A stretch of DNA of 12,022 bases from the NCBI GenBank assembly GCA_051382305.1, contig JBBCAV010000206.1, forward strand, positions 1 to 12,022. The letters are read 5' to 3'. Below, piece by piece: positions 1-12,022 of this stretch. The notes under the pieces were generated by a model. The model was not told the DNA's origin, made no database searches, and saw nothing but the letters and a program-made list of their open reading frames with translations. Numbering within the stretch: the first letter of the stretch is position 1; each line of letters starts with the position of its first letter. The position numbers and the translations under genes were made by a program. The DNA is from Bdellovibrionota bacterium FG-2 (GTDB lineage: Bacteria > Bdellovibrionota > UBA1018).

Positions 1-172
1 AATAACACGACAATTTTCTACTGCTTTTTTCGCGCTACCGCTACAATGACCACAGTGCCACGCAAAATAGATCCAAAGGTTTCCCACTAGCGGTCACCTC
101 TCCGAAGGTCACAGCGGTCATGCAGTTAGCTTGAAACCATATTTGCAACGTGGTTGCGATTGAACATTTGAA

Positions 173-201
173 AACAGAAAATTCACACAAAAACATGTCA
201 A
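173..201 (-). promoter_or_regulatory. possible sigma70 promoter firing leftwards out of the window
   Basis: Minus strand reads TTGACA (201-196), 17 nt, TCTGTT (178-173), preceded by an A-rich tract (AAAAATAAAAAAAGTG). The -35 is perfect but the -10 is poor. Confidence 0.3.
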
Positions 202-244
202 CACTTTTTTTATTTTTATGAAAATAAATTAGACGGCTGGCCAA

Positions 245-329
245 TTACGCCAGAACAATTCCAGCGATAGCAAAGAGCGGCAATCTCGTTTTGCGGTAAA
301 ACCAATCTTTAAGCCTCATAAAGCCTCAT
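245..329 (-). pseudogene. N-terminal stub of a membrane protein (possibly a sensor kinase), truncated
   Basis: Directly after the SBP stop the minus strand reads GGAG-att-ATG(329). A second ATG at 319 gives MRLKDWFYRKTRLPLFAIAGIVLA then TAA (247-245): a basic N-region plus the start of a hydrophobic helix. A 10-nt tandem duplication spans the start. Identity as a sensor kinase is inferred from context only. Confidence 0.4.
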
Positions 330-330
330 A
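311..330. repeat. perfect 10-nt tandem duplication AAGCCTCATA x2
   Basis: Positions 311-320 and 321-330 are identical. Confidence 0.9.
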
Positions 331-336
331 ATCTCC

Positions 337-1872
337 CTATTTCAGCCGAAAAACATCAAGGTGCCCATAATTGCGCTGCATAAGATCGGAGTTCGCTTCA
401 ACGCGATCCCGCTTTATAATCGCAACGGCGCGACTAAAGCCAAGGTGCACAAATGGCACTTCTTCTAGTGCCACTCTAGAAACGTTTTTATAATGCGAAT
501 CCAACACCTCTTGATCAAGAAGTTTTCGTCCATCTTCAAGTAGGGCGCCCACTTTTTTCCGATAGATAGTGGGAGCCAGAATTGATCCTCGCTCGCCCAG
601 TGCATGGTAGATTCCGTCGGGGTCACCATTTAGGACGCTGAAGGTGGTTGCAAGGAGATCATAGTCCTGTCGATTGTACATGTAGTTGAAGTGCTCGCCC
701 TGGGGAATCGGCCCTGACTTTTCGGACACCGAAACGCCTGTTTTCTTCAACTCATCAGTCACCCAAAATCCAATAGGATCCGAGATGAAGTGAATTGGGT
801 GCTCTTTAGACGCTTCAATCAATTCAGGAATGAATTTCTCACCTTCTTTGATGATCTTCTCCGCCTCGGCGCGATCAAGGCGTCCAGCCTGCGCGGGAAG
901 AAAGACCTGTGGATCTAGCGAAAAATACTCCTTGGCTCCAATCAGCGTTGGTTCGCGCGAAAGACGGCTATAAATTATGAATTGCAGAGCACGCCTAAGA
1001 TTCGAATTCTCAAAAAGATGGCCCGGCATCCCATTAACATTAAGAACGATATGAATAGCCTCAGGGCCTGGCAACACTTGAAGATCGGGTTGCGCAGCAA
1101 CGTCGGAGAAAATTCGTGACCCCATCGTATACGCCATCGCGTCAATGCGATTTTCCAGTAGCGCCGCCTTCGCGTCTCTTGACCAGACAAGGGACAACTC
1201 CACCGGCCCAAGCTCCTTGGCTTCTGGATTGTATGGATTCGGTGTGAGCTTCAGAGTATTGGGAGAGGTCTCCTCGATTACAAATTTCCCAGTACCTATC
1301 AATTTACTGCCAACATTACGATAGGCCGACAACCTCGCACCATCGAAGTAATCTAGGGCCATTCGAAAAGGGCGTTTGAATCGAACGCGTAGGGTTCCGT
1401 CATCGACCACAAGAATCCCGGAGATAGTCTTATTTTGCTCAAAATTCTCAAAGCCTTCAATCTGATAGAGGGTGTCTAAAAGGCTACTATTGGCGGATTT
1501 TGGCTGCAAACGATAAGACTCCTCCCAAGAGCGTTTAAAATCATCAGCCTTAAGTGGCGATCCGTCCGAAAAGCGCTTGGATGGGTCGATTTTGAAAATG
1601 AACTCTCTATAGTCCTTTGAAATGCTCCAAGACTTTGCGCCACAAGGCTGAAGCACCCCTTGTTCGTTTGTTCCGACCAGCGTATCGAATTGATTCGACA
1701 ATACCAGTCCCGCCCAAAGAGTGTGCTGCAGTCCGGGATGGAGAGACTTCCATTCGCCGCCAATTCCCAGACGGATAGTACGGGAGCGGTCCAAATGTTT
1801 TTGTATGAGGGTAACCATTGCAATTCCTCCAAGCGCCAGAATCAAAATCAGAAGCCATTTTCTTTTGAGCAT
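337..1872 (-). CDS. family 5 (OppA/DppA-like) extracytoplasmic solute-binding protein, orphan, with N-terminal hydrophobic anchor/signal
   Basis: 511 aa with the family-5 pattern FDTLV...AKSWSISKDYREFIFKI...FSDGSPLKADD, plus DDGTLRVRFKRP, IGTGKFVI, LTPNPY and C-terminal ALEEVPFVHL. No permease or ATPase genes are present in the window. Confidence 0.9.
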   Translation of the reverse strand: MLKRKWLLILILALGGIAMVTLIQKHLDRSRTIRLGIGGEWKSLHPGLQHTLWAGLVLSNQFDTLVGTNEQGVLQPCGAKSWSISKDYREFIFKIDPSKRFSDGSPLKADDFKRSWEESYRLQPKSANSSLLDTLYQIEGFENFEQNKTISGILVVDDGTLRVRFKRPFRMALDYFDGARLSAYRNVGSKLIGTGKFVIEETSPNTLKLTPNPYNPEAKELGPVELSLVWSRDAKAALLENRIDAMAYTMGSRIFSDVAAQPDLQVLPGPEAIHIVLNVNGMPGHLFENSNLRRALQFIIYSRLSREPTLIGAKEYFSLDPQVFLPAQAGRLDRAEAEKIIKEGEKFIPELIEASKEHPIHFISDPIGFWVTDELKKTGVSVSEKSGPIPQGEHFNYMYNRQDYDLLATTFSVLNGDPDGIYHALGERGSILAPTIYRKKVGALLEDGRKLLDQEVLDSHYKNVSRVALEEVPFVHLGFSRAVAIIKRDRVEANSDLMQRNYGHLDVFRLK

Positions 1873-1889
1873 GGGCTATAAGCTTCTCA

Positions 1890-2246
1890 CTATTGGCCCC
1901 AACCGCCGCCGCCGCTTCCTACCATCGAGCTGATATTCTTCTCGTTTATCTGGAGAAGCCGGTTCTTTATCAATGTCTGAAGGGCCAGATCGAACTTGGC
2001 ATTTAGCTCTTTTTCATCCTTTATCGCGCTGACCTTACTGAAACGCGCAAAAGCCTCGTCCATAGTCGTCTCTGTCTCAAAGTCCTTAAAGAGTTGTCCC
2101 TTAATCTTGAGGGCATCACCTAAGAGAATTCCATTTTGGACCTCTCCTTCCATCGCCGAGAGCTCTGAGGTCGCAGCAAGTGAGATCGATGCTACCGGCA
2201 TCACCGCTAGGGCGGTGAGAATCAACTTACGAAATCGCAGCTTCAT
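1890..2246 (-). CDS. 118-aa exported protein; putative RiPP precursor with PqqD/RRE-like body and C-terminal GSGGGGWGQ tail
   Basis: Start reassigned from 2402 to ATG 2246 because GAAGGAG lies 7 nt upstream. The N-terminus MKLRFRKLILTALAVMPVASISLA is a Sec-type signal ending S-L-A. The gene overlaps the rSAM stop by 20 nt. The CDS is well supported; the precursor role is inference. Confidence 0.8.
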   Translation of the reverse strand: MKLRFRKLILTALAVMPVASISLAATSELSAMEGEVQNGILLGDALKIKGQLFKDFETETTMDEAFARFSKVSAIKDEKELNAKFDLALQTLIKNRLLQINEKNISSMVGSGGGGWGQ

Positions 2247-3321
2247 AAAAATACTCCTTCTTGATTTGGGTTTGAGTTTTGGGGACCAACCAACAGCCCG
2301 GATCGGCTGCCAGATAATCCCCGGTTTCGGCATAGGCCGCATTGCGATCACCGCCGCAGCGATCAAAATGGGGGCACTCCCCACAGACTTTGATTTGGCC
2401 ACGGCGAAGGTTCACAAAAATAGGATGATTGAAGAAAAGTGTTTCAAGTCTATTTCCTAGGGCGCTCCCCAATGCCAAGCGTGAGCGACTTGAAGCAAGG
2501 AGGCTGCCCTGATAGTCAATGACGAGCCCCTCCCAAAAACGACCACTTCGCCCAAGTCCAGGATGCAGGAGTGTATAGAGGGGATGATTGGTGTGAGTCT
2601 TTACGCCCGTTCTGGCGGATTCGATTAAGATGGATTGATAGGCGCGTTTTAGGGCTTCGGGGGATAGCGAGATGTTCTTATCTCCCGGCTGCTTGGGCTG
2701 GATAAGGCGAGTGAAGCTCATATGAGAAACACCCACATTTTTTGCCAGCTCAAAGAATGCTGGAATCTGGGGGGCGCTTCGTTGATCCAGGATAGCCTGG
2801 AAATAGGCGGAAACCCCATTTGCTTTAAGATACCGAGCACACGCAACAGCTTTATCGAAACTTCCGGAGCCACGAATTGAGTCGTGCGATTTTGCGTCCG
2901 GCGCATCCAAACTGATTTGGATAGAAACCTCAGGGAAGAGCTTCAACAATTCGGGGCTCAGGCGCTCAGGCAATGTGCCATTGGTCAGAATTACGATGCG
3001 GGTCTTATGATCTTTCGCGTGGATCCAATCCAAAAGCGGGCGAAAATGGGGACTCAATGATGGCTCCCCTCCGCAGAGGAGGACCATCGGGCGAAACCTG
3101 AGCCGCGCAATCATCGTATAATATTGCTCTAGGATGTCGATCCACTCAGGCAGATCAATCGCTCCTTCATTTGAATGGTTGGGGTGATAGCAGTGGGCGC
3201 ACCGAAGGTTACAAAGATTGGTAATATCGAGCTGGATTGGCAGATACCGATCTACATCGATCCAAACCAGGATCTCGTTTTCAATGCGTCGGAGAATGCG
3301 AGGTAAAAGAGAGGGAATCAC
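2227..3321 (-). CDS. radical SAM / SPASM-domain protein, putative peptide maturase
   Basis: Contains CNLRCAHC (C37-x3-C41-x2-C44), GGEP, ILTNG, QISLD...HDSIRGSGSF and a C-terminal C313-x2-C316-x5-C322...DPGC343. The GTG start overlaps the upstream TGA (GTGA coupling). Confidence 0.93.
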   Translation of the reverse strand: MIPSLLPRILRRIENEILVWIDVDRYLPIQLDITNLCNLRCAHCYHPNHSNEGAIDLPEWIDILEQYYTMIARLRFRPMVLLCGGEPSLSPHFRPLLDWIHAKDHKTRIVILTNGTLPERLSPELLKLFPEVSIQISLDAPDAKSHDSIRGSGSFDKAVACARYLKANGVSAYFQAILDQRSAPQIPAFFELAKNVGVSHMSFTRLIQPKQPGDKNISLSPEALKRAYQSILIESARTGVKTHTNHPLYTLLHPGLGRSGRFWEGLVIDYQGSLLASSRSRLALGSALGNRLETLFFNHPIFVNLRRGQIKVCGECPHFDRCGGDRNAAYAETGDYLAADPGCWLVPKTQTQIKKEYFYEAAIS

Positions 3322-3548
3322 TTTGGAGTGCCAGCCTTTATCGCCTCTTTGAGGGATCTTAAGTGACCGAGACTTGAGTGGAGACTTTTAAGCGACGCTT
3401 GGTAATATGTGGAACCGCTTTCCTCGCCATCACACTGCGTCTCGTGGATATCGGAAAATACAGCATCACAAACCGTTTGCAGGGCGCCTAGTCCGGCACG
3501 GAGATCATGATAGATTCTTTCAAGCTCTGGCAAAGTGTTCGTCGTCAT
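3318..3548 (-). CDS. 76-aa stand-alone HisKA/DHp-like helical protein
   Basis: AGGAG lies 8 nt before ATG 3548 and the stop is coupled to the rSAM start. It has an H-box-like IYHDLRAGLGAL and a second amphipathic helix (SLKSLHSSLGHLRSL). No ATPase domain. Confidence 0.65.
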   Translation of the reverse strand: MTTNTLPELERIYHDLRAGLGALQTVCDAVFSDIHETQCDGEESGSTYYQASLKSLHSSLGHLRSLKEAIKAGTPK

Positions 3549-4317
3549 TGCATGTGCTCCTGTTTTTAGGTTTCTTCTCGACGGGTATTTTTCGTTTCAA
3601 AAGACGTCTGTTTTCCTGACGAGTGAGCGCCGTCTTAAGGCGGGAACTAATGCCACTCTCTGACATCTTAAGTGCCGCAGCCACATCGCGATTTTTTGGG
3701 TATTTTGCCTTAGCGCTTTCCATGATTTTATCGCCGAACATTTCAATCAGTGCAGTGAATCCAGGAAACCCAGGACCCTCAATATCAAATTCTGATTTCA
3801 TCAGCTGATTTGCGGTTATAACCCCCTCAACATGATCCGTAGCAGATGTTTTCCTTATGCCCGTAAAGAGGTACGAAATCATTCGCCAGTTACTAAAATC
3901 TGGCTTTCTGTCTCGATCACGAGGAGAGAGAGCAAACATACGACTCAAGAGGTGGTTAATTCCACGGACATTGCCCTCGGGAGGATTATCCATTACCTCT
4001 TGAATGAAATCTTGAGGGAGATCTTCGTAGCCAACGATCACACCGGCTTCACGCGCCACCGCAGGAATGCGAGAACGAATAAGCTCTGGAATATCTTCTT
4101 TTCGCTCCGCCAGACTTGGCATTTTAGCAACAAAGGTCGAAATCCGCATATAAAGGTCTTCACGGAACTCCCCATTCTTGACCGATAGGAATTCTAATCG
4201 CAGCGGCCGAAGGAGTTCAGACATAGCGATCATCACCCCGACTGCACTAATGAGATCAAAAATGTTGAGCCCCAGTACCGATCCATTGTCATTTAGGTTT
4301 CTTGCGCCGAACACCAT
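3520..4317 (-). pseudogene. in-frame chimera: VirB3-like N-terminus fused to the C-terminal half of a sigma54-dependent enhancer-binding protein with HTH
   Basis: The likely start is ATG 4317, 1 nt after the pilin stop. The first ~45 aa (ARNLNDNGSVLGLNIFDLISAVGVMIAM) are hydrophobic and sit in the VirB3 position. From ~4182 the sequence matches bEBP motifs: VKNGEFREDLYMRI, MPSLAERKEDIPELI, PEGNVRGI and a Fis-type HTH NRDVAAALKMSESGISSRLK. Walker A, GAFTGA and Walker B are absent. Confidence 0.75.
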
Positions 4318-4318
4318 A

Positions 4319-4624
4319 TCAACCCCCAAATATCATGCGAAACAGGCCAATTAGGCTGGGTCCGGCAAAACAAAGTCCAGCACCGATAAGGCCACCAATG
4401 ATCGTACCTCTCGCGAACATCACTGCTCCCGAAATTTGGTAGATCGCAGCCCCGCAAAGAATCCCAAGCACACTCAAAGCCTTCGCAATTGAGGTTGCTT
4501 GAGTAACTGCCCCATCCGCTGCCGACGATAAGTCTCGTGCAGCAAAGCTTAAAATGGGGAAGATCAATGCAAGAGCAATGCTCCAAAGAACTCCCTTCAA
4601 ACTCTGTGGTTTAATTCTTTTCAT
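4319..4624 (-). CDS. TrbC/VirB2-like conjugative pilin
   Basis: 101 aa with a long signal peptide (ending S-F-A) followed by two Gly/Ala-rich hydrophobic helices. AGGAGG RBS. Located in an SSB/lipoprotein operon next to an integrase. Confidence 0.65.
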   Translation of the reverse strand: MKRIKPQSLKGVLWSIALALIFPILSFAARDLSSAADGAVTQATSIAKALSVLGILCGAAIYQISGAVMFARGTIIGGLIGAGLCFAGPSLIGLFRMIFGG

Positions 4625-4627
4625 ATT

Positions 4628-5173
4628 CTATTTTCCTCCTTCGGAAATCGCTGGTTTTCCCAGCGGGTTTAGTTGTGGTTGATGAAATCTAAAGAGCAGA
4701 TCCTGGTGAACGAGTTCGCTTTCTCCGGCTCTTCCCCATCGATCAACGTGGTACAAGCTCCATTCACCAGGGGTAATAAGGTTTTTGAATTTTTCTGGAA
4801 GTGGTTTGGATAGCCCCAAGCGATTTGTCGCGATCAATTCCGGGGCGATTTCGGCGTTCATTGCAGCAAGTTCTTTTTCTAGCTTCATTGCCTTTGTTTC
4901 CGCCTCATGTCTTTTTGCATCTTCATCGAAGATGAAAAGCCCCAAAGCGCCCGTGCTAGCGGCACTCAGACCGCCCCATAAAGCCGCATGAGCAAGCTTG
5001 CGCTCATCTGAGGGCGCCAATACCGCACCAATCGTCCCTGCTGTGACTGCAGAGACAGTCATCAGGGTTAACGTCTTGGAGCGGTTACTCATTGTTGAGC
5101 ACCCCCAGGAACAACTTAAGAGTCCCAGCCCCAGGAATAACGAAACGAATTGGTGCGCGTATTGGTTCTTCAT
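4628..5173 (-). CDS. lipoprotein with glycine-zipper helices and coiled coil, probably conjugation-associated
   Basis: AAAGGAGG RBS; lipobox candidates LLSC / SWGC; hydrophobic AVTAGTIGAVLA and ALWGGLSAASTGALGLFIF; coiled segment AKRHEAETKAMKLEKELAAM. Confidence 0.75.
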   Translation of the reverse strand: MKNQYAHQFVSLFLGLGLLSCSWGCSTMSNRSKTLTLMTVSAVTAGTIGAVLAPSDERKLAHAALWGGLSAASTGALGLFIFDEDAKRHEAETKAMKLEKELAAMNAEIAPELIATNRLGLSKPLPEKFKNLITPGEWSLYHVDRWGRAGESELVHQDLLFRFHQPQLNPLGKPAISEGGK

Positions 5174-5185
5174 ATAGCCTCCTTT

Positions 5186-5566
5186 CTAGAGTGATGTAGG
5201 CGCGGTTGATTCAACCGTTACCTTGGGTAAAAGCTTTGAATAGTTGATGTCGTCGGCTAGAACCTCAAACGCCCACAGCATTCTTCCGTCTGCGGTTTCG
5301 TACTGATACGTCTTGAGTGTCCCCGTAACTGACACGCGATCTCCTTTCTTAAGCGTGCCCTTCACGCGAGAGCCTAGGTTTCCGAAGCTTCGGATCGGAA
5401 ACCAGTTTGTGTGAACCTGCTCGTATTGTTTCGTTTTCTCGTTTAGCTTTGAGATGCTCTCGGCTAGCGAGAAGGTAACGACACCGTTTGAGTCCTCACT
5501 TTTTTTGTAGTGCTCGGGGTCCGACCCGATGTTTCCCGTAACTACGACCTGATTTGTTGTACTCAT
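5186..5566 (-). CDS. ssb: single-stranded DNA-binding protein (126 aa, no acidic tail)
   Basis: OB-fold motifs NQVVVTGNIGSDPE, VTFSLA, TNWF and LKKGDRVSVTGTLKT. Start reassigned to ATG 5566 because AAGGAG lies 8 nt upstream. Confidence 0.92.
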   Translation of the reverse strand: MSTTNQVVVTGNIGSDPEHYKKSEDSNGVVTFSLAESISKLNEKTKQYEQVHTNWFPIRSFGNLGSRVKGTLKKGDRVSVTGTLKTYQYETADGRMLWAFEVLADDINYSKLLPKVTVESTAPTSL

Positions 5567-5669
5567 TGCATTGTCTCCTTCTTTGTTTATAGTTTTACGT
5601 TCACTGCTCACTGGCCTTCACCAATGACACTTTCAAAAGTTCGTCCAAGCACCGAGACCCTGCCCTTGA

Positions 5670-6149
5670 TTTGGACGGGAGGGTATCCGGGTTCGCAAAA
5701 GTTGGAGCACTCGCTTCAAAAAGGCTGGGCCAACTAAGGCCGGATATTGGCGCACGCTGCCCGTTTCGAGTAAATTCTACTGGTTTCTGATGAAAGAGGT
5801 GAAGATTGAGGCGATCAAGCCAGATGCCTTCCTTTTTCCGAGATCTTGGGAGTGGGATCAGGGTCAACAAGCAAGTATTCTACGTGGATTCTGCCAAGCC
5901 AATCGCCTGACGTCCGTCAGGTTCCATGCACTCAGGGCCTGCTTCGCAACGCAGTTGATTGCTACGGGGATTCCAGCAACGGTAGTAATGAAGATTTGCG
6001 GATGGAAGGACATGAAGACTATGCAACGTTACATTCGCCTCGCAGGTATCGACGAGGCTGGTGCCACAGAGACGCTGCACTTCATCCCAACTGAAGCAGC
6101 AGTAATGGAAAAAGTAGGGAGCTTGTACGATCCTACGAAGCAAGGATGA
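5670..6149 (+). pseudogene. tyrosine recombinase/integrase, 5'-truncated C-terminal fragment
   Basis: The frame of ORF 5790..6149 stays open back to TGA 5667-5669 and reads IRVRKSWSTRFKKAGPTKAGYWRTLPVS...FHALRACFATQL...ICGWKDMKTMQRYIR (catalytic K, H-x-x-R, W, Y). The first catalytic Arg box and the N-terminal domains are missing. Confidence 0.88.
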
Positions 6150-6186
6150 CTAAATGGAAAAACTTTGAGATAAGATCTTTCTAGGT

Positions 6187-7299
6187 ATGAAGAAACAAAA
6201 AGACGTTAAGAAGAAGATTCTGTCACAAGCTGTGACAGAAATGGGTGCGGTCCTCGGCTATGCTACTTTTCTGTCTGAAATTAAGGCACGTGTAGCAGCG
6301 GCACAAACACGTGCCACAATGGCCGTCAATCGCGAGATGCTTGCCCTCTATTGGCACATCGGTCGTTCCATTATTGAGCGGCAAAAGACAGAAAAGTGGG
6401 GCTCTTCTGTTATCGAACGTTTCGCGACCGATATGCAAAAAGCATTTCCAGGAATCGAAGGTTTTTCGGAACGAAACATCTGGAAAATGCGGGCATTTTA
6501 TCTCGCTTACCCAGAAAAACTTAGCCGCACAGCCGCCACCAAGATAAACCACTCATTTCTGCCACAAGCTGTGGCAGAAATACCCTGGGGCCACCAAGTT
6601 GTACTGATCGAAACCGTGAAGTCTTCAAAAGAACGCGATTTTTACGCAAAAATGGCACTCAAAAATGGTTGGTCCAGGGCTATTTTAATGATGCAAATTG
6701 AGAGCGGGCTTGCTGCGAGACAAGGAAAAGCGATCACCAATTTCAAGAACACCATTCTTCCACCGCATTCCGATATGGCCCAACAATCGCTCAAAGACCC
6801 GTATGTTTTTGACTTTCTAACCTTGGCTACTGATGCACAAGAGCATGAGTTTGAACAAGGGTTGATGAATCATGTCCAGAAGTTCCTGCTGGAACTTGGG
6901 GTAGGCTTTGCATTCGTTGGACGCCAGGTTCACCTTAAGGTCGGCAAGAAGGATTACTACGTCGATTTGCTGTTCTATCACCTAACGCTTCGCCGTTTTT
7001 TTGTAATCGAGCTAAAGACAAAGGCTTTTGAGCCGGAGTTTGCGGGAAAAATGAACTTCTATCTTTCGGCGGTTGACGACAAGTTCAAGCACCCCGATGA
7101 TCAACCCAGCATAGGACTGCTACTTTGTAAGTCAAAGGACAAGTTTGAGGTTGAATACGCCTTGAGGAGGGTGAGCTCACCCATCAGTGTTTCCGCATGG
7201 GAGACTCGGTTGGTCGAATCATTACCCAAGGAGCTGAAGGCAAGTTTGCCAACAGTGAAACAGTTGGAAGAAGAATTCAGTGGAGAGAAAGAGAAGTGA
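6187..7299 (+). CDS. yhcG: YhcG/DUF1016 family PDDEXK nuclease-domain protein
   Basis: Characteristic motifs VNREMLALYWHIG, WGSSVIE, GFSERNIWKMRAFY, IPWGH, LKDPYVFDFL, FLLELGVGFAFVGRQ, DLLFYH, VIELK, GKMNFYL and IGLLLCK. Confidence 0.95.
   Translation: MKKQKDVKKKILSQAVTEMGAVLGYATFLSEIKARVAAAQTRATMAVNREMLALYWHIGRSIIERQKTEKWGSSVIERFATDMQKAFPGIEGFSERNIWKMRAFYLAYPEKLSRTAATKINHSFLPQAVAEIPWGHQVVLIETVKSSKERDFYAKMALKNGWSRAILMMQIESGLAARQGKAITNFKNTILPPHSDMAQQSLKDPYVFDFLTLATDAQEHEFEQGLMNHVQKFLLELGVGFAFVGRQVHLKVGKKDYYVDLLFYHLTLRRFFVIELKTKAFEPEFAGKMNFYLSAVDDKFKHPDDQPSIGLLLCKSKDKFEVEYALRRVSSPISVSAWETRLVESLPKELKASLPTVKQLEEEFSGEKEK
6218..6240. repeat. perfect inverted repeat, copy 1 (TTCTGTCACA-agc-TGTGACAGAA)
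   Basis: 10-bp arms with a 3-nt spacer, inside the yhcG CDS, encoding ILSQAVTE. Confidence 0.9.
6555..6581. repeat. perfect inverted repeat, copy 2 (ATTTCTGCCACA-agc-TGTGGCAGAAAT)
   Basis: 12-bp arms with the same agc spacer, encoding FLPQAVAEI; 23/25 identical to copy 1. Confidence 0.9.
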
Positions 7300-7367
7300 A
7301 CGCATCAGTATTTCCCAGCATTTCGCGAACATTCTTAGAGCACTTTAAGTTGTCGAGATTTTCGCAC

Positions 7368-7402
7368 TTGCTTAACGCAGATGCTTTTCCTACAATAGGA
7401 AA
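7368..7402 (+). promoter_or_regulatory. sigma70 promoter of the U32 gene with a palindrome over the -10
   Basis: TTGCTT (7368-7373), 17 nt, TACAAT (7391-7396). TTTCCTA-caa-TAGGAAA (7386-7402) overlaps the -10 box. Confidence 0.6.
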
Positions 7403-7470
7403 GAACGAGTCGCAAGTACGCAGAATTATTCAGTGTGAATCACCTCCACCAAAATTTTAGAAAGTCCACA

Positions 7471-10107
7471 ATGACCGTCCCCCCCATTGCGCCAAACTTA
7501 AGGCCAAAGGTCTTGCGTCGCCCCGAAATTCTTGCCCCGGCCGGGGACATTGATAGCATGCGCGCGGCCCTTTTCAGTGGGGCCAACGCGGTATTTTTTG
7601 GACTTGATGAGGGCTTTAATGCTCGCTCGCGAGCCAAGAATTTTCCGGTGGCACGTCTTCAGGAAACGGTGGAAATGATACATCGTGCGGGTGCCAAAGC
7701 GTACGTAACAATGAACACGCTTGTTTTTGAAGCCGAACTCCAAGACGCTGAGGACCTTATTCGAGCATGTGCTCGTTGCGGCGTGGATGCTTTGTTAGTG
7801 CAAGATCCGGCCGTTTCGCTGCTGGCCAGAGCGATATGCCCATCGCTTGATCTTCACGCCAGTACTCAAATGACGATTAGTTCAGCCGAAGCTGCTGAAT
7901 TTGCTCGCACCTTGGGAATCAAGCGCGTTGTTATTCCGCGAGAACTCTCGGTTTCAGAAATTGATCACTTCAAGAAGAATACAGACCTCGAAATTGAAGT
8001 CTTCATTCATGGCGCTTTGTGTGTGGCGTGGAGCGGTCAGTGTTTAAGCAGCGAAGTCTGGGGCGGGCGATCGGCAAACCGCGGTCAGTGCGCTCAATCG
8101 TGTCGCATGCCATATGACCTCATCGTCGATGGTAAATTCGTACCGCAGGGTGAAATCAAATATTTTCTAAGCCCAAAGGATTTGGCGGGCTATCGGGCGG
8201 TACCTGCCCTGATGGAAACGGGAGTTCATTCGCTAAAAATCGAAGGCCGTCTTAAGGGACCCGCCTATGTTGCCACAGTGATACGAGGCTTGAGTCATTG
8301 GATGGATGCAATTGTAAATGGGATCGCAGACCAACCTGAACCGCAGCAAGTTTTGGCTAAAGCACTTTCACAAATGATGGTCACTTACTCGCGGGGTTTT
8401 GGTGACGGATTTTTAGCGGGGGTCGATCATCAGAATCTGGTCGATGGGCGATTTCCGCGGCATCGGGGGTATTTAGTCGGGACGGTTCAGCGCGTTCAAG
8501 GAAAACATGTTTGGGTTGAAAAAGGGCCCCTGGCACTAAGGCATTTTGTGCGCGGGAAAACCCTGGCAGGTGTGGTGGCCTCACCGTTGCCGCCTCTTGG
8601 GGGGGCACCGGATTCTTCTACAGGGGCGGCAGTGGCTGATCTGCAAATTCGCCCTGGAATGGGCGTATGCTTTGATGCCGGTAAGCCTGAATCACACGAT
8701 GAGGCCGGAGGCCCCATTTTTGAAACACGCCGCGAGGGATCGACTTGGATTTTAGGTTTTGGAATTCCGGGCCCTGATTTAACTCGAGTTCAAATCGGAG
8801 ATCGAGTTTGGCTTAATAGCGATCCTGAGATTACTCGCTTTGCCAATCAAGCGGCTCAGGGCGAGGTGCGTGAGGGTAAAAATCCACTCGTGTTTCGAAT
8901 AAGCGGCAAAATGGGCGAACCGCTTCGAATTGAAGTTAGGAGTAATCGCTATGGAGAGCTTCTGATCGAGAGTGCCGAATCTTTAGTCGCCGCAAGCGGA
9001 AAGGGCCTGAGCTCGGAGATCATGAGCGAAAAACTTTGTGCGCTCGGAGGAACGCCGTTTTATTTAGAGGCGCTTCAGTTTGCGCTCGAAGGAGATTTGC
9101 ACTTTCCGGTCAGTCAACTCAAAGTACTTCGACGAAAAATCGTCGAAGAATTTGAACGGCGGCTCGCGCTGCCGCGAAAAGATGTCGAGACGGAGCCAGT
9201 TCTTCGCGCACTCAAGGCTAAACCGTTTAGTTTTCCGCGCGCGCAAACTGAAATCCCAGAACTTGTTGTTCTCTGCCGCACGATGGACCAGCTGGAGGCC
9301 GTGATCGCACTTGGCTTCAAAGAAGTCGAGCTGGATTGGATGGAGTTGGTAGGCCTTGGAGAGGCGGTCGATCGAGCGAAAAAGGCTGGCCTCAAAGTGA
9401 CGATCGCCACAATGAGAGTTCAAAAGCCGGGAGAAGATGGATTTGATCGGCGCATCGCCTGCCTTGAACCCGAGGCGGTCCTAGTACGCAATTGGGGCGC
9501 ACTAATGCAGTTTAGAAAAGAGGGCGCGCTCGGCAGGAGGAATCCGATTATTCATGGTGACTTTTCCTTGAATGTGACCAATTCTCTGAGCGCAAAGCAT
9601 GTGCTCGCCTTGGGGCTAGACACTCTGACGGCCGCACATGATTTAAATAGTGAGCAGCTTGTGGCCTTGCTTCGCGAAGTCCCGCCAGCGCTTGTGACGG
9701 TGGTTGTGCATCATCATATTTCAACTTTTCATACCGAGCATTGCGTTTACGCACAGAACCTCTCACCTGGAAAGGATTTTCATTCTTGTGGGCGTCCCTG
9801 CGAAAAACATCGTGTTGCGCTCCGGGACCATCTGGGCAATGAACACCCCGTCGTGGTGGATGTCGGATGTCGAAATACTGTCTTTAATGCGCAGGCTCAA
9901 AGTGCGGCCGCCCTAGTCCCTTCGTTGATCAAGCAAGGCGTAAAGCGGTTCCGAGTTGAATTCGTTTGGGAGTCCGGACATACCGCAACTGATGTTCTGC
10001 AATCTTATCAAGCGCTCCTCATCGGATCGCTCTCAAGCGATGAACTCGTTAGACGGATTGGTGTCTACGAGCAGTTCGGTGTAACGCAAGGAACGATGGC
10101 GCGTTAG
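7471..10107 (+). CDS. long U32-family protein (two U32-like repeats, probable DUF3656 region); RlhA-like Fe-S RNA hydroxylation factor
   Basis: PEILAPAG, LHASTQM, RELS, EVFIHGALCVAWSGQC...SANRGQCAQSCRMPY, LSPKDL and SLKIEGR, plus a second Cys cluster HTEHC...CGRPC...GCRNTVFN. The start is ATG 7471 or GTG 7435. The substrate is inferred from family knowledge. Confidence 0.9.
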   Translation: MTVPPIAPNLRPKVLRRPEILAPAGDIDSMRAALFSGANAVFFGLDEGFNARSRAKNFPVARLQETVEMIHRAGAKAYVTMNTLVFEAELQDAEDLIRACARCGVDALLVQDPAVSLLARAICPSLDLHASTQMTISSAEAAEFARTLGIKRVVIPRELSVSEIDHFKKNTDLEIEVFIHGALCVAWSGQCLSSEVWGGRSANRGQCAQSCRMPYDLIVDGKFVPQGEIKYFLSPKDLAGYRAVPALMETGVHSLKIEGRLKGPAYVATVIRGLSHWMDAIVNGIADQPEPQQVLAKALSQMMVTYSRGFGDGFLAGVDHQNLVDGRFPRHRGYLVGTVQRVQGKHVWVEKGPLALRHFVRGKTLAGVVASPLPPLGGAPDSSTGAAVADLQIRPGMGVCFDAGKPESHDEAGGPIFETRREGSTWILGFGIPGPDLTRVQIGDRVWLNSDPEITRFANQAAQGEVREGKNPLVFRISGKMGEPLRIEVRSNRYGELLIESAESLVAASGKGLSSEIMSEKLCALGGTPFYLEALQFALEGDLHFPVSQLKVLRRKIVEEFERRLALPRKDVETEPVLRALKAKPFSFPRAQTEIPELVVLCRTMDQLEAVIALGFKEVELDWMELVGLGEAVDRAKKAGLKVTIATMRVQKPGEDGFDRRIACLEPEAVLVRNWGALMQFRKEGALGRRNPIIHGDFSLNVTNSLSAKHVLALGLDTLTAAHDLNSEQLVALLREVPPALVTVVVHHHISTFHTEHCVYAQNLSPGKDFHSCGRPCEKHRVALRDHLGNEHPVVVDVGCRNTVFNAQAQSAAALVPSLIKQGVKRFRVEFVWESGHTATDVLQSYQALLIGSLSSDELVRRIGVYEQFGVTQGTMAR

Positions 10108-10277
10108 TAACGCCACATTATGTAACCGGGCACATGATCCACGGTAACATCGGCCGCAGAAGCCGGAGCGCGATCAAAGGATTCGCCTTGCGGGGGAGAA
10201 ACTGACTCTTGCGCGCAGCCCGCGAGAACACAAAACCCCAGAACCAGCACCAAACACAAAGCGTATCGAATAGTCAT
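10104..10277 (-). CDS. 57-aa small lipoprotein (not in ORF track)
   Basis: MTIRYALCLVLVLGFCVLAGCAQESVSPPQGESFDRAPASAADVTVDHVPGYIMWRY*. It has a canonical LAGC lipobox (C21), an AAGGGAG RBS and an upstream sigma28-like promoter. Its stop overlaps the convergent U32 stop. Confidence 0.7.
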   Translation of the reverse strand: MTIRYALCLVLVLGFCVLAGCAQESVSPPQGESFDRAPASAADVTVDHVPGYIMWRY

Positions 10278-11106
10278 AATGGCACTCCCTTTCTTTGGGC
10301 GTATCGGCTTTTCTCGGAAAAAATTGAATTTTTTTATTTATTAAATCCTGAACTACTCCGGTAGTTCCCGGAGGCACCAGGAGCATCGTGTCCAGTTTCG
10401 GACAACGTATTTTCAAAAAATCGGAGAGCTGTTTGTCATCTTGAAACGTCAGGACGGCATCCCTCTTCTGATAGCCAAAATAGGTGAATAGCTCGGAGTT
10501 CGGCACCGAACAGGTTTCACCCGAAGGCGCCCTGAAAATGCAGGAGCGCTTAGAATCCGTAATAGGGGCGTCGCCCATCTTCCACCCGCAATCAAGCAGC
10601 AAGCCCTTGTACTTGGGGATCTCAAAACCACCCTGATTTTTCATGCTGACTTTCTTGGCCTCTTTGAACTCGCCTCCAGAAAAGCTCAGTGGTCGACCCG
10701 TGGTCCCTGAAAAACGCCAAAAATCGCCCGAAGGGACCCGCACTGTGATAGATTCATCAGGAGAAATTTCGTATGTAGGAACGCCGCCTCTTCTCGGAAA
10801 AAGATAAAAGACGCGAGCACCGTTTTCGCTCTTTAAGGCACTAAACGCCAAGAGTTGACCATCGTCTTGAAAATTAAAAGTGCGATTCCCCGCCCCTTTT
10901 TCATCGCCTGCGAAACCCACTGACAGAAGGCACCTCTTAGAGGCGGGTCCATATAGGATTTGAACCTTGACGTCATTCGGTTGAAAAAAATCCTCTTTGC
11001 AAGCGGCTTCACCACCACTAGGCGTCCGTATTGGGGTAACCCCAAAAGCTGTGCTTGAAAGGAGCAGAATTCCTAAAGACACCCAAAAAGGGGTTGACCG
11101 CATCAT
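10174..11106 (-). CDS. exported hypothetical protein, Cys-containing; last ~55 aa possibly read-through
   Basis: Signal peptide MMRSTPFWVSLGILLLSSTAFG and a long open frame. The 3' end runs through an AT-rich tract, a promoter-like motif and 104 nt of the small lipoprotein gene. Confidence 0.75.
   Translation of the reverse strand: MMRSTPFWVSLGILLLSSTAFGVTPIRTPSGGEAACKEDFFQPNDVKVQILYGPASKRCLLSVGFAGDEKGAGNRTFNFQDDGQLLAFSALKSENGARVFYLFPRRGGVPTYEISPDESITVRVPSGDFWRFSGTTGRPLSFSGGEFKEAKKVSMKNQGGFEIPKYKGLLLDCGWKMGDAPITDSKRSCIFRAPSGETCSVPNSELFTYFGYQKRDAVLTFQDDKQLSDFLKIRCPKLDTMLLVPPGTTGVVQDLINKKIQFFPRKADTPKERECHYDYSIRFVFGAGSGVLCSRGLRARVSFSPARRIL
10301..10327 (-). promoter_or_regulatory. FliA/sigma28-like promoter for the small lipoprotein
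   Basis: TCAA (10327-10324), 15 nt, GCCGATAC (10308-10301); the consensus is TAAA-N15-GCCGATAA. Confidence 0.6.
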
Positions 11107-11112
11107 GTTGCC

Positions 11113-11140
11113 TTATCGGCACATCGCAAAAGGAACTAAA
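11113..11140 (-). promoter_or_regulatory. FliA/sigma28-like promoter for the exported protein
   Basis: Perfect -10 GCCGATAA (11120-11113) with a weak -35 TTTAGTT starting at 11140. The -10 ends 6 nt before ATG 11106. Confidence 0.55.
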
Positions 11141-11177
11141 TCTTGCTTTTTGACGCGTCGCATTATATACATAATCC

Positions 11178-11801
11178 ATGTGCGCCCGCCAAAGCCAGGC
11201 AGTCCAACTCGCCCTCACCTTCTGCACCCTGCTCGTGCTCACGCTTTCCGTCCCTTCCGCTTTGGCTGAAGTACTTCTCGTCTACAAAAATAAGAGCGAG
11301 CTCTCCGTTCGAATTGCCACGGAACAAGAACAAAAACGCCACCTCTCCGAAGCAAATGGTTTTTTCTTTGAGAGCGAAGCCACAAAACAGTCCTATGAGC
11401 AAATCACTCACGCCTTATCTCCAGTCGTGGGCGAAGCGGAGGCCAAAAAGGCATTCGCATTCTTGAGTTCACAAACCCAGATCCCATTCTCTATTATTGA
11501 CGACGGCTGCTACGCACGCGCTCACGAGATGGCACTCTTGCTTGAATTAAGAGGAATCCTCAGCAAAAAAGTTTTTGTCTATGGCAAGCTGTTTGCCACA
11601 GGAAAATATGGCTCGGCTCCCTGGAAGTACCACGTCGCTCCGATGGTTCAAGTTCGCCGCGCAAACGGCTTGGTGGAACAAATGATTTTCGATCCCTCGC
11701 TCTTTTCTCAACCCTCACCCCTCCGCGATTGGTTCGCCACTATTGGACAACCCCACTGCCCCGAGGCACACGGAAACACCTTAGGAACTGTAACAAAATA
11801 A
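11178..11801 (+). CDS. secreted protein-glutaminase-domain protein, 3' end interrupted by IS
   Basis: Signal peptide ending A-L-A and a Cys-His-Asp triad in DGCYARAH, WKYHVAP and IFDPSLF. The last codons (GTVTK*) and the stop lie in the putative IS end. Confidence 0.85.
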   Translation: MCARQSQAVQLALTFCTLLVLTLSVPSALAEVLLVYKNKSELSVRIATEQEQKRHLSEANGFFFESEATKQSYEQITHALSPVVGEAEAKKAFAFLSSQTQIPFSIIDDGCYARAHEMALLLELRGILSKKVFVYGKLFATGKYGSAPWKYHVAPMVQVRRANGLVEQMIFDPSLFSQPSPLRDWFATIGQPHCPEAHGNTLGTVTK

Positions 11802-11806
11802 CTGAG

Positions 11807-11852
11807 TGATGTTCACAGTAAACATAGTGTACCGTTTTTTCTGTGAACATCA
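11807..11852. repeat. 12-bp inverted repeat covering the transposase start codon
   Basis: TGATGTTCACAG (11807-11818) pairs with CTGTGAACATCA (11841-11852), which contains GTG 11843. Confidence 0.85.
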
Positions 11853-12022
11853 GTGGTCTTCGTCAGAAGTACCGGGCTATCGCGCCTGCGTTGAGCGAAC
11901 GCAGCCGAAGACTTTGGGCAGCGGCCGAAGCTGTATCCATCGGACACGGCGGTATTGCAAAGGTGGAGCGCGCCACTGATATTTCTCTTTCGACCATTAG
12001 CCGTGGGATCAAGGAATTGGAA
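11843..12022 (+). CDS. ISAzo13-family transposase, N-terminal 60 aa (partial)
   Basis: MNISGLRQKYRAIAPALSERSRRLWAAAEAVSIGHGGIAKVERATDISLSTISRGIKELE matches the family N-terminal pattern L.ER.RRLWAA.EA...G.GGI..V..AT.....TI.RG..EL. The frame is open to the window end. Confidence 0.88.
   Translation, partial: MNISGLRQKYRAIAPALSERSRRLWAAAEAVSIGHGGIAKVERATDISLSTISRGIKELE

Follow-up and report, generated by a model that had tools for sequence, protein, structure and literature searches.

Peptide pheromones control conjugation in Gram-positive bacteria; to our knowledge, Gram-negative elements use acyl-homoserine lactones or stress signals. Several described systems resemble the locus reported here. 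In the Vibrio LuxP-LuxQ-LuxU-LuxO system, which responds to autoinducer-2 (AI-2), a periplasmic binding protein, a hybrid kinase, a small histidine phosphotransfer protein and an NtrC-type sigma-54 activator form one signaling chain. The enterococcal pCF10 system (cCF10/iCF10, PrgZ, PrgX) places a family-5 binding protein on a conjugative element whose transfer is decided by a short gene-encoded peptide (see also PMC5552905 and PMC7117660). The subject of this report is a contig of Bdellovibrionota bacterium FG-2, C206, on which an earlier note, made from the sequence alone, had proposed a candidate modified-peptide signaling cassette coupled to conjugation genes. The entire contig of 12,022 bases, part of an assembly of 433 contigs that is 85% complete, is called the window below.

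Our analysis indicates that a conserved, mobile signaling module of Bdellovibrionota is represented in the window by a decayed copy. That the module exists, that it is mobile and that this copy has decayed are all nearly certain. Its core genes encode a radical S-adenosylmethionine (SAM) enzyme, a small exported protein and a family-5 solute-binding protein (SBP5), and intact copies add a histidine kinase and a response regulator of the bacterial enhancer-binding protein (bEBP) type. We propose, with a probability of about 0.5, that the module provides its own exported signal, which would be tailored by the radical SAM enzyme and sensed by SBP5 together with the kinase. Output would pass through sigma-54 promoters to the module's own operon and, in the elements of this genome, to an operon on the side of the type IV secretion system (T4SS) genes.

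The same genome contains two further copies of the cassette, on contigs C168 and C107, both intact and each inside a predicted conjugative element. The gene order in these copies is response regulator/bEBP, a protein of 76 or 75 amino acids (aa), radical SAM enzyme, exported protein of 118 or 120 aa, SBP5, and hybrid histidine kinase of 681 or 680 aa. The window's radical SAM enzyme and SBP5 are 91% and 92% identical to those of C168, and 81% and 65% identical to those of C107. All genes that had been listed for the window as one co-directional run are present on its minus strand, as judged by open reading frames (ORFs), with domain calls from Pfam and NCBIfam. It also holds true that the three core genes are intact while their neighbors are broken, the kinase at codon 24 and the activator by loss of its receiver and AAA+ domains.

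Orthologues of the radical SAM enzyme occur in 6 of 41 relatives' genomes at E <= 1e-30, counting G000. At E <= 1e-50 they are found in 16 of 401 genomes of the phylum (15 of 203 genera), a patchy distribution, and named relatives include Bdellovibrio, Bdellovibrionales, Bdellovibrionaceae and Silvanigrella metagenome-assembled genomes. Only the six best loci from a wider species collection are of Bdellovibrionota lineage, with 35-53% identity in the radical SAM enzyme; the others have 32% or less. Examination covered 22 of the 80 loci returned (L028-L049, with L050-L107 outside the count). SBP5 and a histidine kinase lie beside the radical SAM gene in 6 of these, and neither does in any of the 16 with identity at or below 32%.

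ORFs were clustered across 21 loci, a set that omits the short contigs L128, L133, L135, L024, L025 and L026 and the duplicates L022 (of L028) and L029 (of L131). The radical SAM gene is present in all 21 loci, SBP5 in 20, the kinase in 19 and the response regulator/bEBP in 12; in some loci a shorter regulator, consisting of a receiver and a Fis-type helix-turn-helix (HTH), replaces the bEBP. Small ORFs with a signal peptide belong to a family A in 10 loci and to a family B in 5. By clustering, such an ORF lies between the radical SAM and SBP5 genes in at least 15 loci, and inspection by eye adds L031, L136 and L137, the last two of which have a split SBP5 gene. Its start overlaps the stop of the radical SAM gene or follows within ~31 nucleotides (nt) in the loci listed for this distance. 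The short contigs left out of the clustering show the same partial order. Thus, the linkage that the earlier note had anticipated, of a small signal-peptide ORF, SBP5 and a kinase to this radical SAM enzyme, is found in every locus with enough contig.

The small protein is a candidate both for the substrate of the radical SAM enzyme and for the signal. In the window, its start overlaps the stop of the radical SAM gene by 20 nt, and its tail, SMVGS-GGGGWGQ, ends in the previously noted GGGGWGQ. A word-based homologue search returned only 5 proteins; a profile search of 1.84 billion proteins reached more, namely 94 representatives after clustering at 50%, with 62 at E <= 1e-10. Across 63 sequences, conservation reaches at least 90% at P17, A25 and S111. 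The hydrophobic segment at the N terminus shows an unusual degree of conservation, and the near-invariant S111 usually has a proline before it. A "PS" pair occurs within the last 20 residues of 51 of 85 near-full-length members, and the tail beyond it comprises 1-10 residues (median 3) and is distinct in 48 of the 51. Tryptophan, tyrosine, phenylalanine and histidine together make up 25.5% of tail residues versus 7.4% in the body, and glycine 19% versus 4.7%. The tail S-GGGGWGQ is common to the window and C168, and that of C107 is S-GGGGGWG.

The AlphaFold2 (AF2) model of the small protein has the order alpha1-beta1-alpha2-alpha3-beta2-beta3. Block means of its predicted local distance difference test (pLDDT) are 73-88 at residues 41-110, and the tail (residues 112-118) falls below 50 and is predicted to be disordered. 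Structural matches to winged-helix proteins reached Z scores of 5.4-7.2, a common range for VIA-align wide, and involved generic domains only; the same search listed no CpxP-like or PqqD-like chain, a result that excludes nothing. Foldseek gave no match to this model at E <= 0.001. Matches in the ESM Atlas, for this protein and for the 76-aa protein, were all at or below 0.82 and included no named family, and the small protein has no family in Pfam or NCBIfam.

In 5 loci, the same slot is taken by family B, whose small exported proteins can barely be aligned with those of family A (for example, L126 11031-11387 and L131 4027-4368). Its tails share an A.LS.I pattern, and some members carry a twin-arginine-like SRRSILG or TRRSILG motif. 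A single cluster representative, P0021 (476 aa), combines the N-terminal part of the radical SAM enzyme with the C-terminal part of the small protein, the match covering residues 364-473. It may be a natural fusion or a frameshift across normally overlapping genes, and it is not counted as evidence.

The radical SAM enzyme matches PF04055 (Radical_SAM) with an E value of 5.6e-19 and 69.3 bits against a cut-off of 29.5. Its CxxxCxxC motif reads CNLRCAHC (residues 37-44), without variation among 7 orthologues. The earlier assignment to the radical SAM/SPASM enzymes therefore stands in its first half. As to the second, the full seven-cysteine SPASM motif is absent and Pfam reports no SPASM domain; the C-terminal part has just four conserved cysteines (C313, C316, C322 and C343), a pattern that fits a one-cluster domain (Twitch-like or partial SPASM). 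The enzyme aligns along its full length, below threshold, with the NCBIfam SPASM families of mycofactocin maturase (MftC), PqqE, NirJ2 and GeoRSP. Scores of such full-length alignments are 77 against a cut-off of 265 for TIGR03962 and 50 against 381 for TIGR02109. The best NCBIfam match, TIGR04053, scores 100.1 bits against a cut-off of 395, and the best 25 of 69 matches are all below the curated cut-offs. The closest sequences in the PDB are SkfB, PqqE and anSME. Judged by these similarities, the enzyme groups with the peptide- or protein-modifying SPASM/Twitch enzymes. Its AF2 model (mean pLDDT 65, C-terminal part below 50) was left out of the fold search.

Full-length similarity to anSME and PqqE-type enzymes, and a signal peptide on the candidate substrate, would also be expected if the radical SAM enzyme and the small protein made a periplasmic cofactor-bearing or cross-linked protein of enzymatic or structural function, like the QhpD/QhpC or anSME/sulfatase pairs, with the two-component genes merely regulating it. 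The SRRSILG motif in some family-B members, and an arginine pair within the first 15 residues of 7 of the 85 small proteins, point in the same direction. However, no partner enzyme or redox protein recurs around the cassette in the 21 loci, hypervariable tails are atypical for a cofactor site, and SBP5 is the invariant partner. We consider this explanation very improbable.

If the module instead encodes a signal, SBP5 is its presumptive receptor. This protein has a hydrophobic segment at residues 2-27. A profile search of the PDB returned peptide binders, including PrgZ (4faj, E 7.9e-13); the closest relatives are general peptide, murein-peptide and nickel binders, and all NCBIfam equivalog scores are far below their cut-offs. 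A GDPDG-type motif (D417, P418, D419 and G420; alignment A7) is invariant in 18 of 18 orthologues. It may resemble the segment of DppA and OppA in which an aspartate binds the free N-terminal amine of the peptide. No gene for an ABC permease or ATPase is found in or beside the cassettes; SBP5 is an orphan binder, with the kinase gene directly after it. When SBP5 (residues 30-511) and the mature small protein (residues 27-118) were submitted to complex prediction, both as alignments, the score was 0.01, far from the mark of 0.32, which is evidence neither way.

The kinases of C168 and C107 have two membrane helices that flank a periplasmic loop of ~105 aa, followed by HisKA and HATPase domains and by a C-terminal extension with a weak receiver match. 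The H-box is canonical, and H225, N332, N336, the G boxes and a pair of periplasmic cysteines are invariant. The intact regulators of the paralogues consist of a receiver, a sigma-54 activation domain (PF00158, E 6e-55) with GAFTGA in the alignment, and an HTH. Between C168 and C107, SBP5 and the kinase are both 65% identical and the radical SAM enzyme about 80%. This divergence, in a single comparison, fits a diversification of receptor and signal.

The 76-aa protein (p76), which the earlier note had called HisKA-like, occurs only in the three cassettes of this genome, and these are the cassettes whose kinases carry the additional receiver-like region at the C terminus. With hhalign, p76 residues 11-62 fall on residues 222-265 of the kinase, in its dimerization and histidine phosphotransfer (DHp) region, with histidine on histidine, at a probability of 8.6%. 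There is no Pfam match to p76 even at E 10 and none to a histidine phosphotransfer (Hpt) family. We regard p76, with low confidence, as a candidate phosphotransfer protein.

The kinship of SBP5 to general peptide, murein-peptide and nickel binders raises the question of whether SBP5 and the kinase sense an exogenous ligand, such as peptides derived from prey or cell walls, with the radical SAM enzyme and the small protein serving as accessories that modulate the sensor in the periplasm or act as a co-receptor. A small protein that is predicted to be a folded, winged-helix-like domain with a very short tail would suit such a role, the cassette has no exporter or protease gene, and many loci are chromosomal with no T4SS nearby. 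This explanation is unlikely in our view, although more credible than a cofactor-bearing protein. The radical SAM gene, the small ORF and SBP5 are coupled tightly and almost universally. Moreover, tails that vary so much on a conserved body look like a diversification of specificity, for which a housekeeping modulator has no need, and sigma-54 motifs before the cassette's own operon in six loci fit autoinduction.

These motifs bear on the predicted output of the self-encoded signal. An rpoN gene is present in the genome (C397). The scan of the loci for TGGCAC-N5-TTGC required GG and GC and tolerated no more than one mismatch elsewhere; the exact consensus was not found in the loci of this genome, where relaxed scans were needed. 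In L124, L126, L127, L131, L132 and L030, a motif with at most one mismatch ends 33-77 nt before the start of the bEBP gene. The proteins that begin there open their receiver with MNY(K/R/N)ILIADD or a closely similar sequence, and several of the starts come after GGAG or GAGG, which resembles a Shine-Dalgarno sequence. A motif in this position, ahead of an operon headed by the bEBP gene, fits autoregulation.

On C168 and C107, the opposite strand carries the motif, at distances of 171 and 260 nt from the start of the bEBP gene and ~50-55 nt upstream of a gene for a Zn-ribbon protein of 81 or 95 aa, which is followed by a gene for a conserved 72-aa protein. The motif and the leader form a near-invariant island, GTGGCAC.GAT..TGCCT.A.GGGTTCCCGTTCGGC, in an otherwise diverged spacer between the divergent genes, and an inverted repeat of TTCGAAATTC type lies ~110 nt upstream of the motif. 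The co-directional run on C168 continues after the Zn-ribbon and 72-aa genes with genes for a 793-aa and a 942-aa protein, ssb, the lipoprotein, pilin and VirB3-position genes, and VirB4. A locus from another genus, L125, has the same divergent layout: TGGCACGGTACTTGTC ends ~50 nt before a homologous Zn-ribbon gene, and pilin, VirB3 and VirB4 genes follow. In L124, L126 and L131, too, the pilin genes have Zn-ribbon genes ahead of them. The interval between kinase and pilin genes contains no motif in L124, L131 and L132, a match with two mismatches in L126 and one with a single mismatch in L030. A terminator scan of the T4SS side of C168 gave 12 sites versus 8.8 expected, which neither supports nor breaks a long operon. 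Overall, a sigma-54 output is supported by predicted promoter motifs in specific positions.

The genes for the Zn-ribbon proteins (CxxC...CxxC) and for the conserved 72-aa protein, which ends in NWDSANGYYSYLRDFR, recur between the cassette and the pilin genes (L014 13538-14275, L015 13606-14142, L125 12916-13200, L126 17941-18159 and L131 9461-9676) and lie directly behind the sigma-54 motif in three loci. Neither the Zn-ribbon nor the 72-aa proteins have a family match, and both are possibly second-tier regulators of transfer. The 793-aa and 942-aa proteins of C168 (L014 14551-19757), located between the Zn-ribbon genes and ssb, have no match in Pfam, NCBIfam or PADLOC; the former is cysteine-rich with a lipoprotein-like start.

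The conjugation genes of C168, downstream of its ssb-pilin block, include a VirB4/TraC-type ATPase, TrbI, a TraG/TrwB coupling protein, a MobC-like protein and integrases; no relaxase was identified among them. Those of C107 are TraU, TraF, TraE, TraC and a VirB11-like ATPase. All that the window retains is ssb, the lipoprotein-like and pilin-like genes, the VirB3-position stub and an integrase fragment. Across the 21 loci, T4SS genes (VirB4-like, or TraU or a coupling protein) are present in the fetched flanks of 9: the window remnant, C168, C107, L124, L125, L126, L131, L132 and L030. The association with regulators and T4SS genes that had been predicted for these neighborhoods is seen in part of the loci. 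The cassette is not exclusive to conjugative elements.

The cassette could also be cargo on mobile elements and regulate something other than transfer, its nearness to T4SS genes reflecting shared mobility alone. The patchy distribution (16 of 401 genomes), the occurrence in genomes with no detectable VirB4 and the association with two different T4SS types would all be expected of cargo, and transcription running unbroken from the sigma-54 promoter to the T4SS genes is an assumption. Against this, in three loci of two genera the sole sigma-54 motif by the bEBP gene points at the Zn-ribbon gene that heads the run of pilin, VirB3 and VirB4 genes, and there are the similar genes before pilin genes in three more loci. 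We judge cargo status to be quite improbable.

The proposed circuit of a self-encoded, tailored signal would operate as follows. The cytoplasmic radical SAM enzyme would modify the tail of the small protein ahead of Sec export. In the periplasm, SBP5 would recognize the small protein, whole or as a fragment set free by cleavage, and loaded SBP5 would act on the ~105-aa periplasmic loop of the kinase. Phosphate would then reach the activator, in this genome possibly by way of the C-terminal receiver of the kinase and p76. The activator would fire sigma-54 promoters. Some elements would thereby autoinduce the activator's own operon, and in the elements of this genome the target would be the divergent promoter before the Zn-ribbon gene, which heads an operon into the T4SS genes. 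Modification by the radical SAM enzyme, the nature of the ligand, action between cells and control of transfer are the steps that we infer.

Several observations weigh against this circuit. No RiPP (ribosomally synthesized and post-translationally modified peptide) recognition element of PqqD-like type is visible, the core of the radical SAM enzyme beginning at about residue 29 with no N-terminal extension, and the cassette has neither a leader protease nor a dedicated exporter gene. Given so short a tail on a body with a predicted fold, the product may be a protein that carries a modification and not a free peptide, and a periplasmic protein of ~90 aa has no obvious route across the outer membrane. 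The similarity of p76 to DHp regions is weak (hhalign E 0.0039, probability 8.6%). Several loci have no adjacent regulator, and the window's own copy is missing the kinase and the catalytic domains of the regulator. About 0.7 chance matches to the sigma-54 motif are expected per 20-kb locus by our own calculation, such that only position is informative, and the -12 element of the L125 motif is GT rather than GC. Finally, the fetched flanks of 12 of the 21 loci have no T4SS gene. PF19044, the profile used for VirB4-type genes, has no match genome-wide in 7 of 10 other genomes with a cassette (G250, G248, G359, G258, G014, G028 and G408), and in the remaining three (G255, G018 and G016) it matches only away from the cassette.

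A bolder version of the circuit is a Gram-negative pheromone system on conjugative elements. In it, a tail tailored by the radical SAM enzyme, still attached to the protein or cut free, would be read by a chain of SBP5, (hybrid) kinase, phosphotransfer protein and sigma-54 activator, with autoinduction and licensing of the T4SS, and the many different tails would be "pherotypes" by which related elements within a cell or a community tell each other apart. We offer this version tentatively and, on balance, doubt it. The module, if it acts as proposed, would link cell-cell or self-sensing to DNA transfer in a new way, on conjugative elements of this phylum. A new class of radical SAM substrate, a folded signal-peptide protein with a variable tail of 1 to 10 residues, would be added as well. 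The presence of intact and broken copies in one genome, and of ~94 clusters with different tails, makes these ideas directly testable.

The features of the window are collected in the table. The short membrane-protein ORF at its start proved to be the first 24 codons of the cassette kinase (positions 319-248, stop 247-245 at the repeat boundary), cut by a multicopy repeat. Its sequence matches the N terminus of the 681-aa C168 kinase, and homology to C168 begins at position 249. The repeat has at least 17 other copies in the genome, mostly at contig ends, that are 97-100% identical (blastn), and Logan word depth is 307 within it and about 10 next door.

Features of the 12,022-base window, in order of position
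Feature	Position	Strand	Basis or remark
End of multicopy repeat (insertion sequence-like), truncates kinase gene	1..248	.	blastn against own genome, Logan depth
Stub of cassette histidine kinase, first 24 codons with N-terminal membrane helix	245..319	-	translation MRLKDWFYRKTRLPLFAIAGIVLA, then stop
Orphan family-5 solute (peptide)-binding protein, 511 aa, N-terminal membrane anchor, intact	337..1872	-	SBP_bac_5 E 1.8e-26
Small protein of 118 aa, exported (signal peptide), with predicted winged-helix-like domain, intact	1890..2246	-	alignments, AF2
Radical SAM enzyme, SPASM/Twitch-like peptide-modifying group, 364 aa, intact	2227..3321	-	Pfam, cysteine motifs
76-aa protein (p76), conserved His in H-box-like IYHDLR	3318..3548	-	candidate stand-alone phosphotransfer protein (DHp-like)
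C-terminal remnant (AAA lid and DNA-binding end) of NtrC-type response regulator/sigma-54 activator (bEBP)	3520..4179	-	paralogue alignment
In-frame rearrangement junction	4174..4180	.	bEBP codon equivalent ~354 joined to codon ~50 of VirB3-position gene
N-terminal stub of small membrane protein, VirB3 by position	4180..4329	-	matches C168 97-aa protein
Pilin-like hydrophobic protein, 101 aa	4319..4624	-	several hydrophobic segments; C168 homologous region upstream of VirB4
Lipoprotein-like protein, 181 aa, transfer region	4628..5173	-	one N-terminal hydrophobic segment; LLSC/WGC cysteine
ssb, single-strand DNA-binding protein of the element	5186..5611	-	Pfam SSB E 1.2e-17; TIGR00621 above cut-off
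Tyrosine recombinase (integrase), C-terminal fragment	5790..6149	+	Pfam Phage_integrase E 2.9e-10, profile positions 110-168 only
Multicopy repeat, second contig end	11777-12022		at least 10 copies (blastn); Logan depth 181

The ORF at 3520-4329 is an in-frame chimera on the minus strand, a VirB3-position stub joined to a bEBP C terminus, as had been suggested with a junction close by, at ~4183. From residue ~53 on, it corresponds to the last ~210 aa of the intact activators of 565 and 554 aa (C168 and C107) and has neither the receiver nor the AAA+ domain. An AAA_lid_14 fragment is its sole Pfam detection, and NCBIfam bEBP families match only residues 49-142. Residues 5-50 align with residues 1-46 of the C168 97-aa protein at 85% identity over the alignment; that protein, located between pilin and VirB4, has no Pfam match. 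Window positions 249-4173 are collinear with the C168 cassette at 83% nucleotide identity, and positions 4190-5690 correspond to the ssb-lipoprotein-pilin-VirB3 block of C168 in inverted orientation (blastn). On C168, this block lies ~7 kb from the cassette on the opposite strand. The direct adjacency of the cassette to the transfer genes is thus secondary and was made by the junction, as the earlier note had held.

An independent Logan contig of 1703 nt spans positions 3417-5119 with 0 differences, so the junction is present in reads and is not the assembler's decision alone. A chimera made in assembly was also considered and is unlikely in view of this contig, with the proviso that the run may come from the very sample that was assembled.

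The window has lost the receiver and AAA+ domains of the activator, the intergenic control region and the kinase. Because it is without the kinase and these two regulator domains, the copy is unable to signal on its own. The most that it could do is supply a signal and a receptor that equal, or nearly equal, those of the intact element on C168. In a comparison of the window and C168 copies, the dN/dS values are 0.056 (SBP5), 0.064 (small protein), 0.10 (radical SAM enzyme) and 0.11 (p76), at dS 0.45-1.4; these are values that average the whole time since the copies diverged and are silent on the period after breakage. By this measure, the remaining cassette genes are not drifting. The bEBP remnant has a dN of 0.237 to C168 at 66% identity, compared with 0.04-0.09 for p76, the radical SAM enzyme and SBP5, and is as distant from C168 as C107 is; recombination with a breakpoint between p76 and bEBP, or a loosening of selection once the gene was truncated, could account for its divergence. 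In the window, a scan found no tRNA, no meaningful internal repeats were found, and a relaxed scan of its cassette part gave no sigma-54 motif.

Among the other genes of the element, the labels "lipoprotein" and "pilin" given in the earlier note apply to genes that are present, and the names come from features and position. The 181-aa protein has no family match in Pfam or NCBIfam; its gene is conserved beside ssb and pilin on C168 (dN/dS 0.09), where an ssb homologue precedes it, and the lipoprotein label is plausible but unproven. The 101-aa pilin-like protein has no Pfam match and is named by position and hydrophobicity only; its positional analogue in L124 matches TrbC/VirB2 with an E value of 6.5e-6, below the gathering score. 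The integrase fragment is homologous to a full 417-aa integrase of C168 and to further copies. An intact gene for a 370-aa YhcG/DUF1016 PDDEXK nuclease (6187-7299; Pfam E 1.4e-63 and 7.1e-41) sits between this fragment and the presumed end of the element.

Logan word depth is 8-14 across 402-7218, about 22 across 7372-11806 and 181 at the far contig end. The step falls within 7219-7430, a Logan contig branches off at 7401, and positions 7368-7418 are 90% identical to C168:40839-40889 and similar to C390. The region 7219-7430 may be an att-like end of the element, which may be present in only part of the population. Outside the element are genes for an 890-aa U32 peptidase with a DUF3656 domain (7435-10107), a 310-aa exported protein of no family (10174-11106) and a 207-aa protein with a Gln_deamidase_2 domain (11178-11801). 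An open-ended ORF in the second repeat (11843-12022) resembles, by its sequence alone, the start of a transposase. PADLOC reported only generic similarity to viperin-type radical SAM and RtcR-type AAA+ proteins and no defense system.

The earlier note did not recognize the architecture as a described system. Consistent with this, we found no description of the module in literature listings and the openings of abstracts, and no component, when set against known systems, reaches the cut-off of a curated family. The Vibrio Lux chain has the same logic as the chain predicted for the cassettes of C168 and C107. However, LuxP is a sugar-type binder, whereas SBP5 is of the peptide type. The bEBP scores 188.7 bits on the LuxO model NF041946 against a cut-off of 800 and is not a LuxO orthologue, and p76, in the place of LuxU, has no Hpt-family match. 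In addition, the Lux signal is AI-2, whereas the presumed signal here is encoded by a gene beside that for a radical SAM enzyme, in a module on mobile elements.

The pCF10 system is Gram-positive, and its unmodified peptide is imported via Opp to a cytoplasmic receptor. It has no radical SAM enzyme, histidine kinase or sigma-54 component, and the present module has no permease genes with SBP5. The ChvE-VirA-VirG system, which controls virB in Agrobacterium, is similar to the proposed circuit in that a periplasmic binder, a kinase and a regulator switch on the T4SS operon of a mobile element, and the VirA-like model NF010411 is among the weak matches of our kinase. Its ligands are plant sugars and phenolics, its regulator is of the OmpR type and works with sigma-70, and it includes neither a radical SAM enzyme nor an encoded small protein.

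On the biosynthetic side, MftC/MftA, PqqE/PqqA and StrB (streptide) also pair a radical SAM enzyme that has a C-terminal auxiliary-cluster domain, putative in the present module, with a small precursor, with aromatic residues at the extreme C terminus. In contrast to these, the module has no recognition protein of the PqqD/MftB type, its enzyme has only four conserved C-terminal cysteines, and its precursor carries a signal peptide and a folded domain of ~70 aa. The anSME/sulfatase (4k37) and QhpD/QhpC pairs resemble the proposed scheme in that a cytoplasmic radical SAM/SPASM enzyme modifies a protein later exported to the periplasm, but here there is no sulfatase or amine dehydrogenase partner, and the target motif would be (P)S plus a variable tail. 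A member of none of these systems, the module would combine two known kinds, two-component sensing of the quorum type and precursors tailored by radical SAM enzymes.

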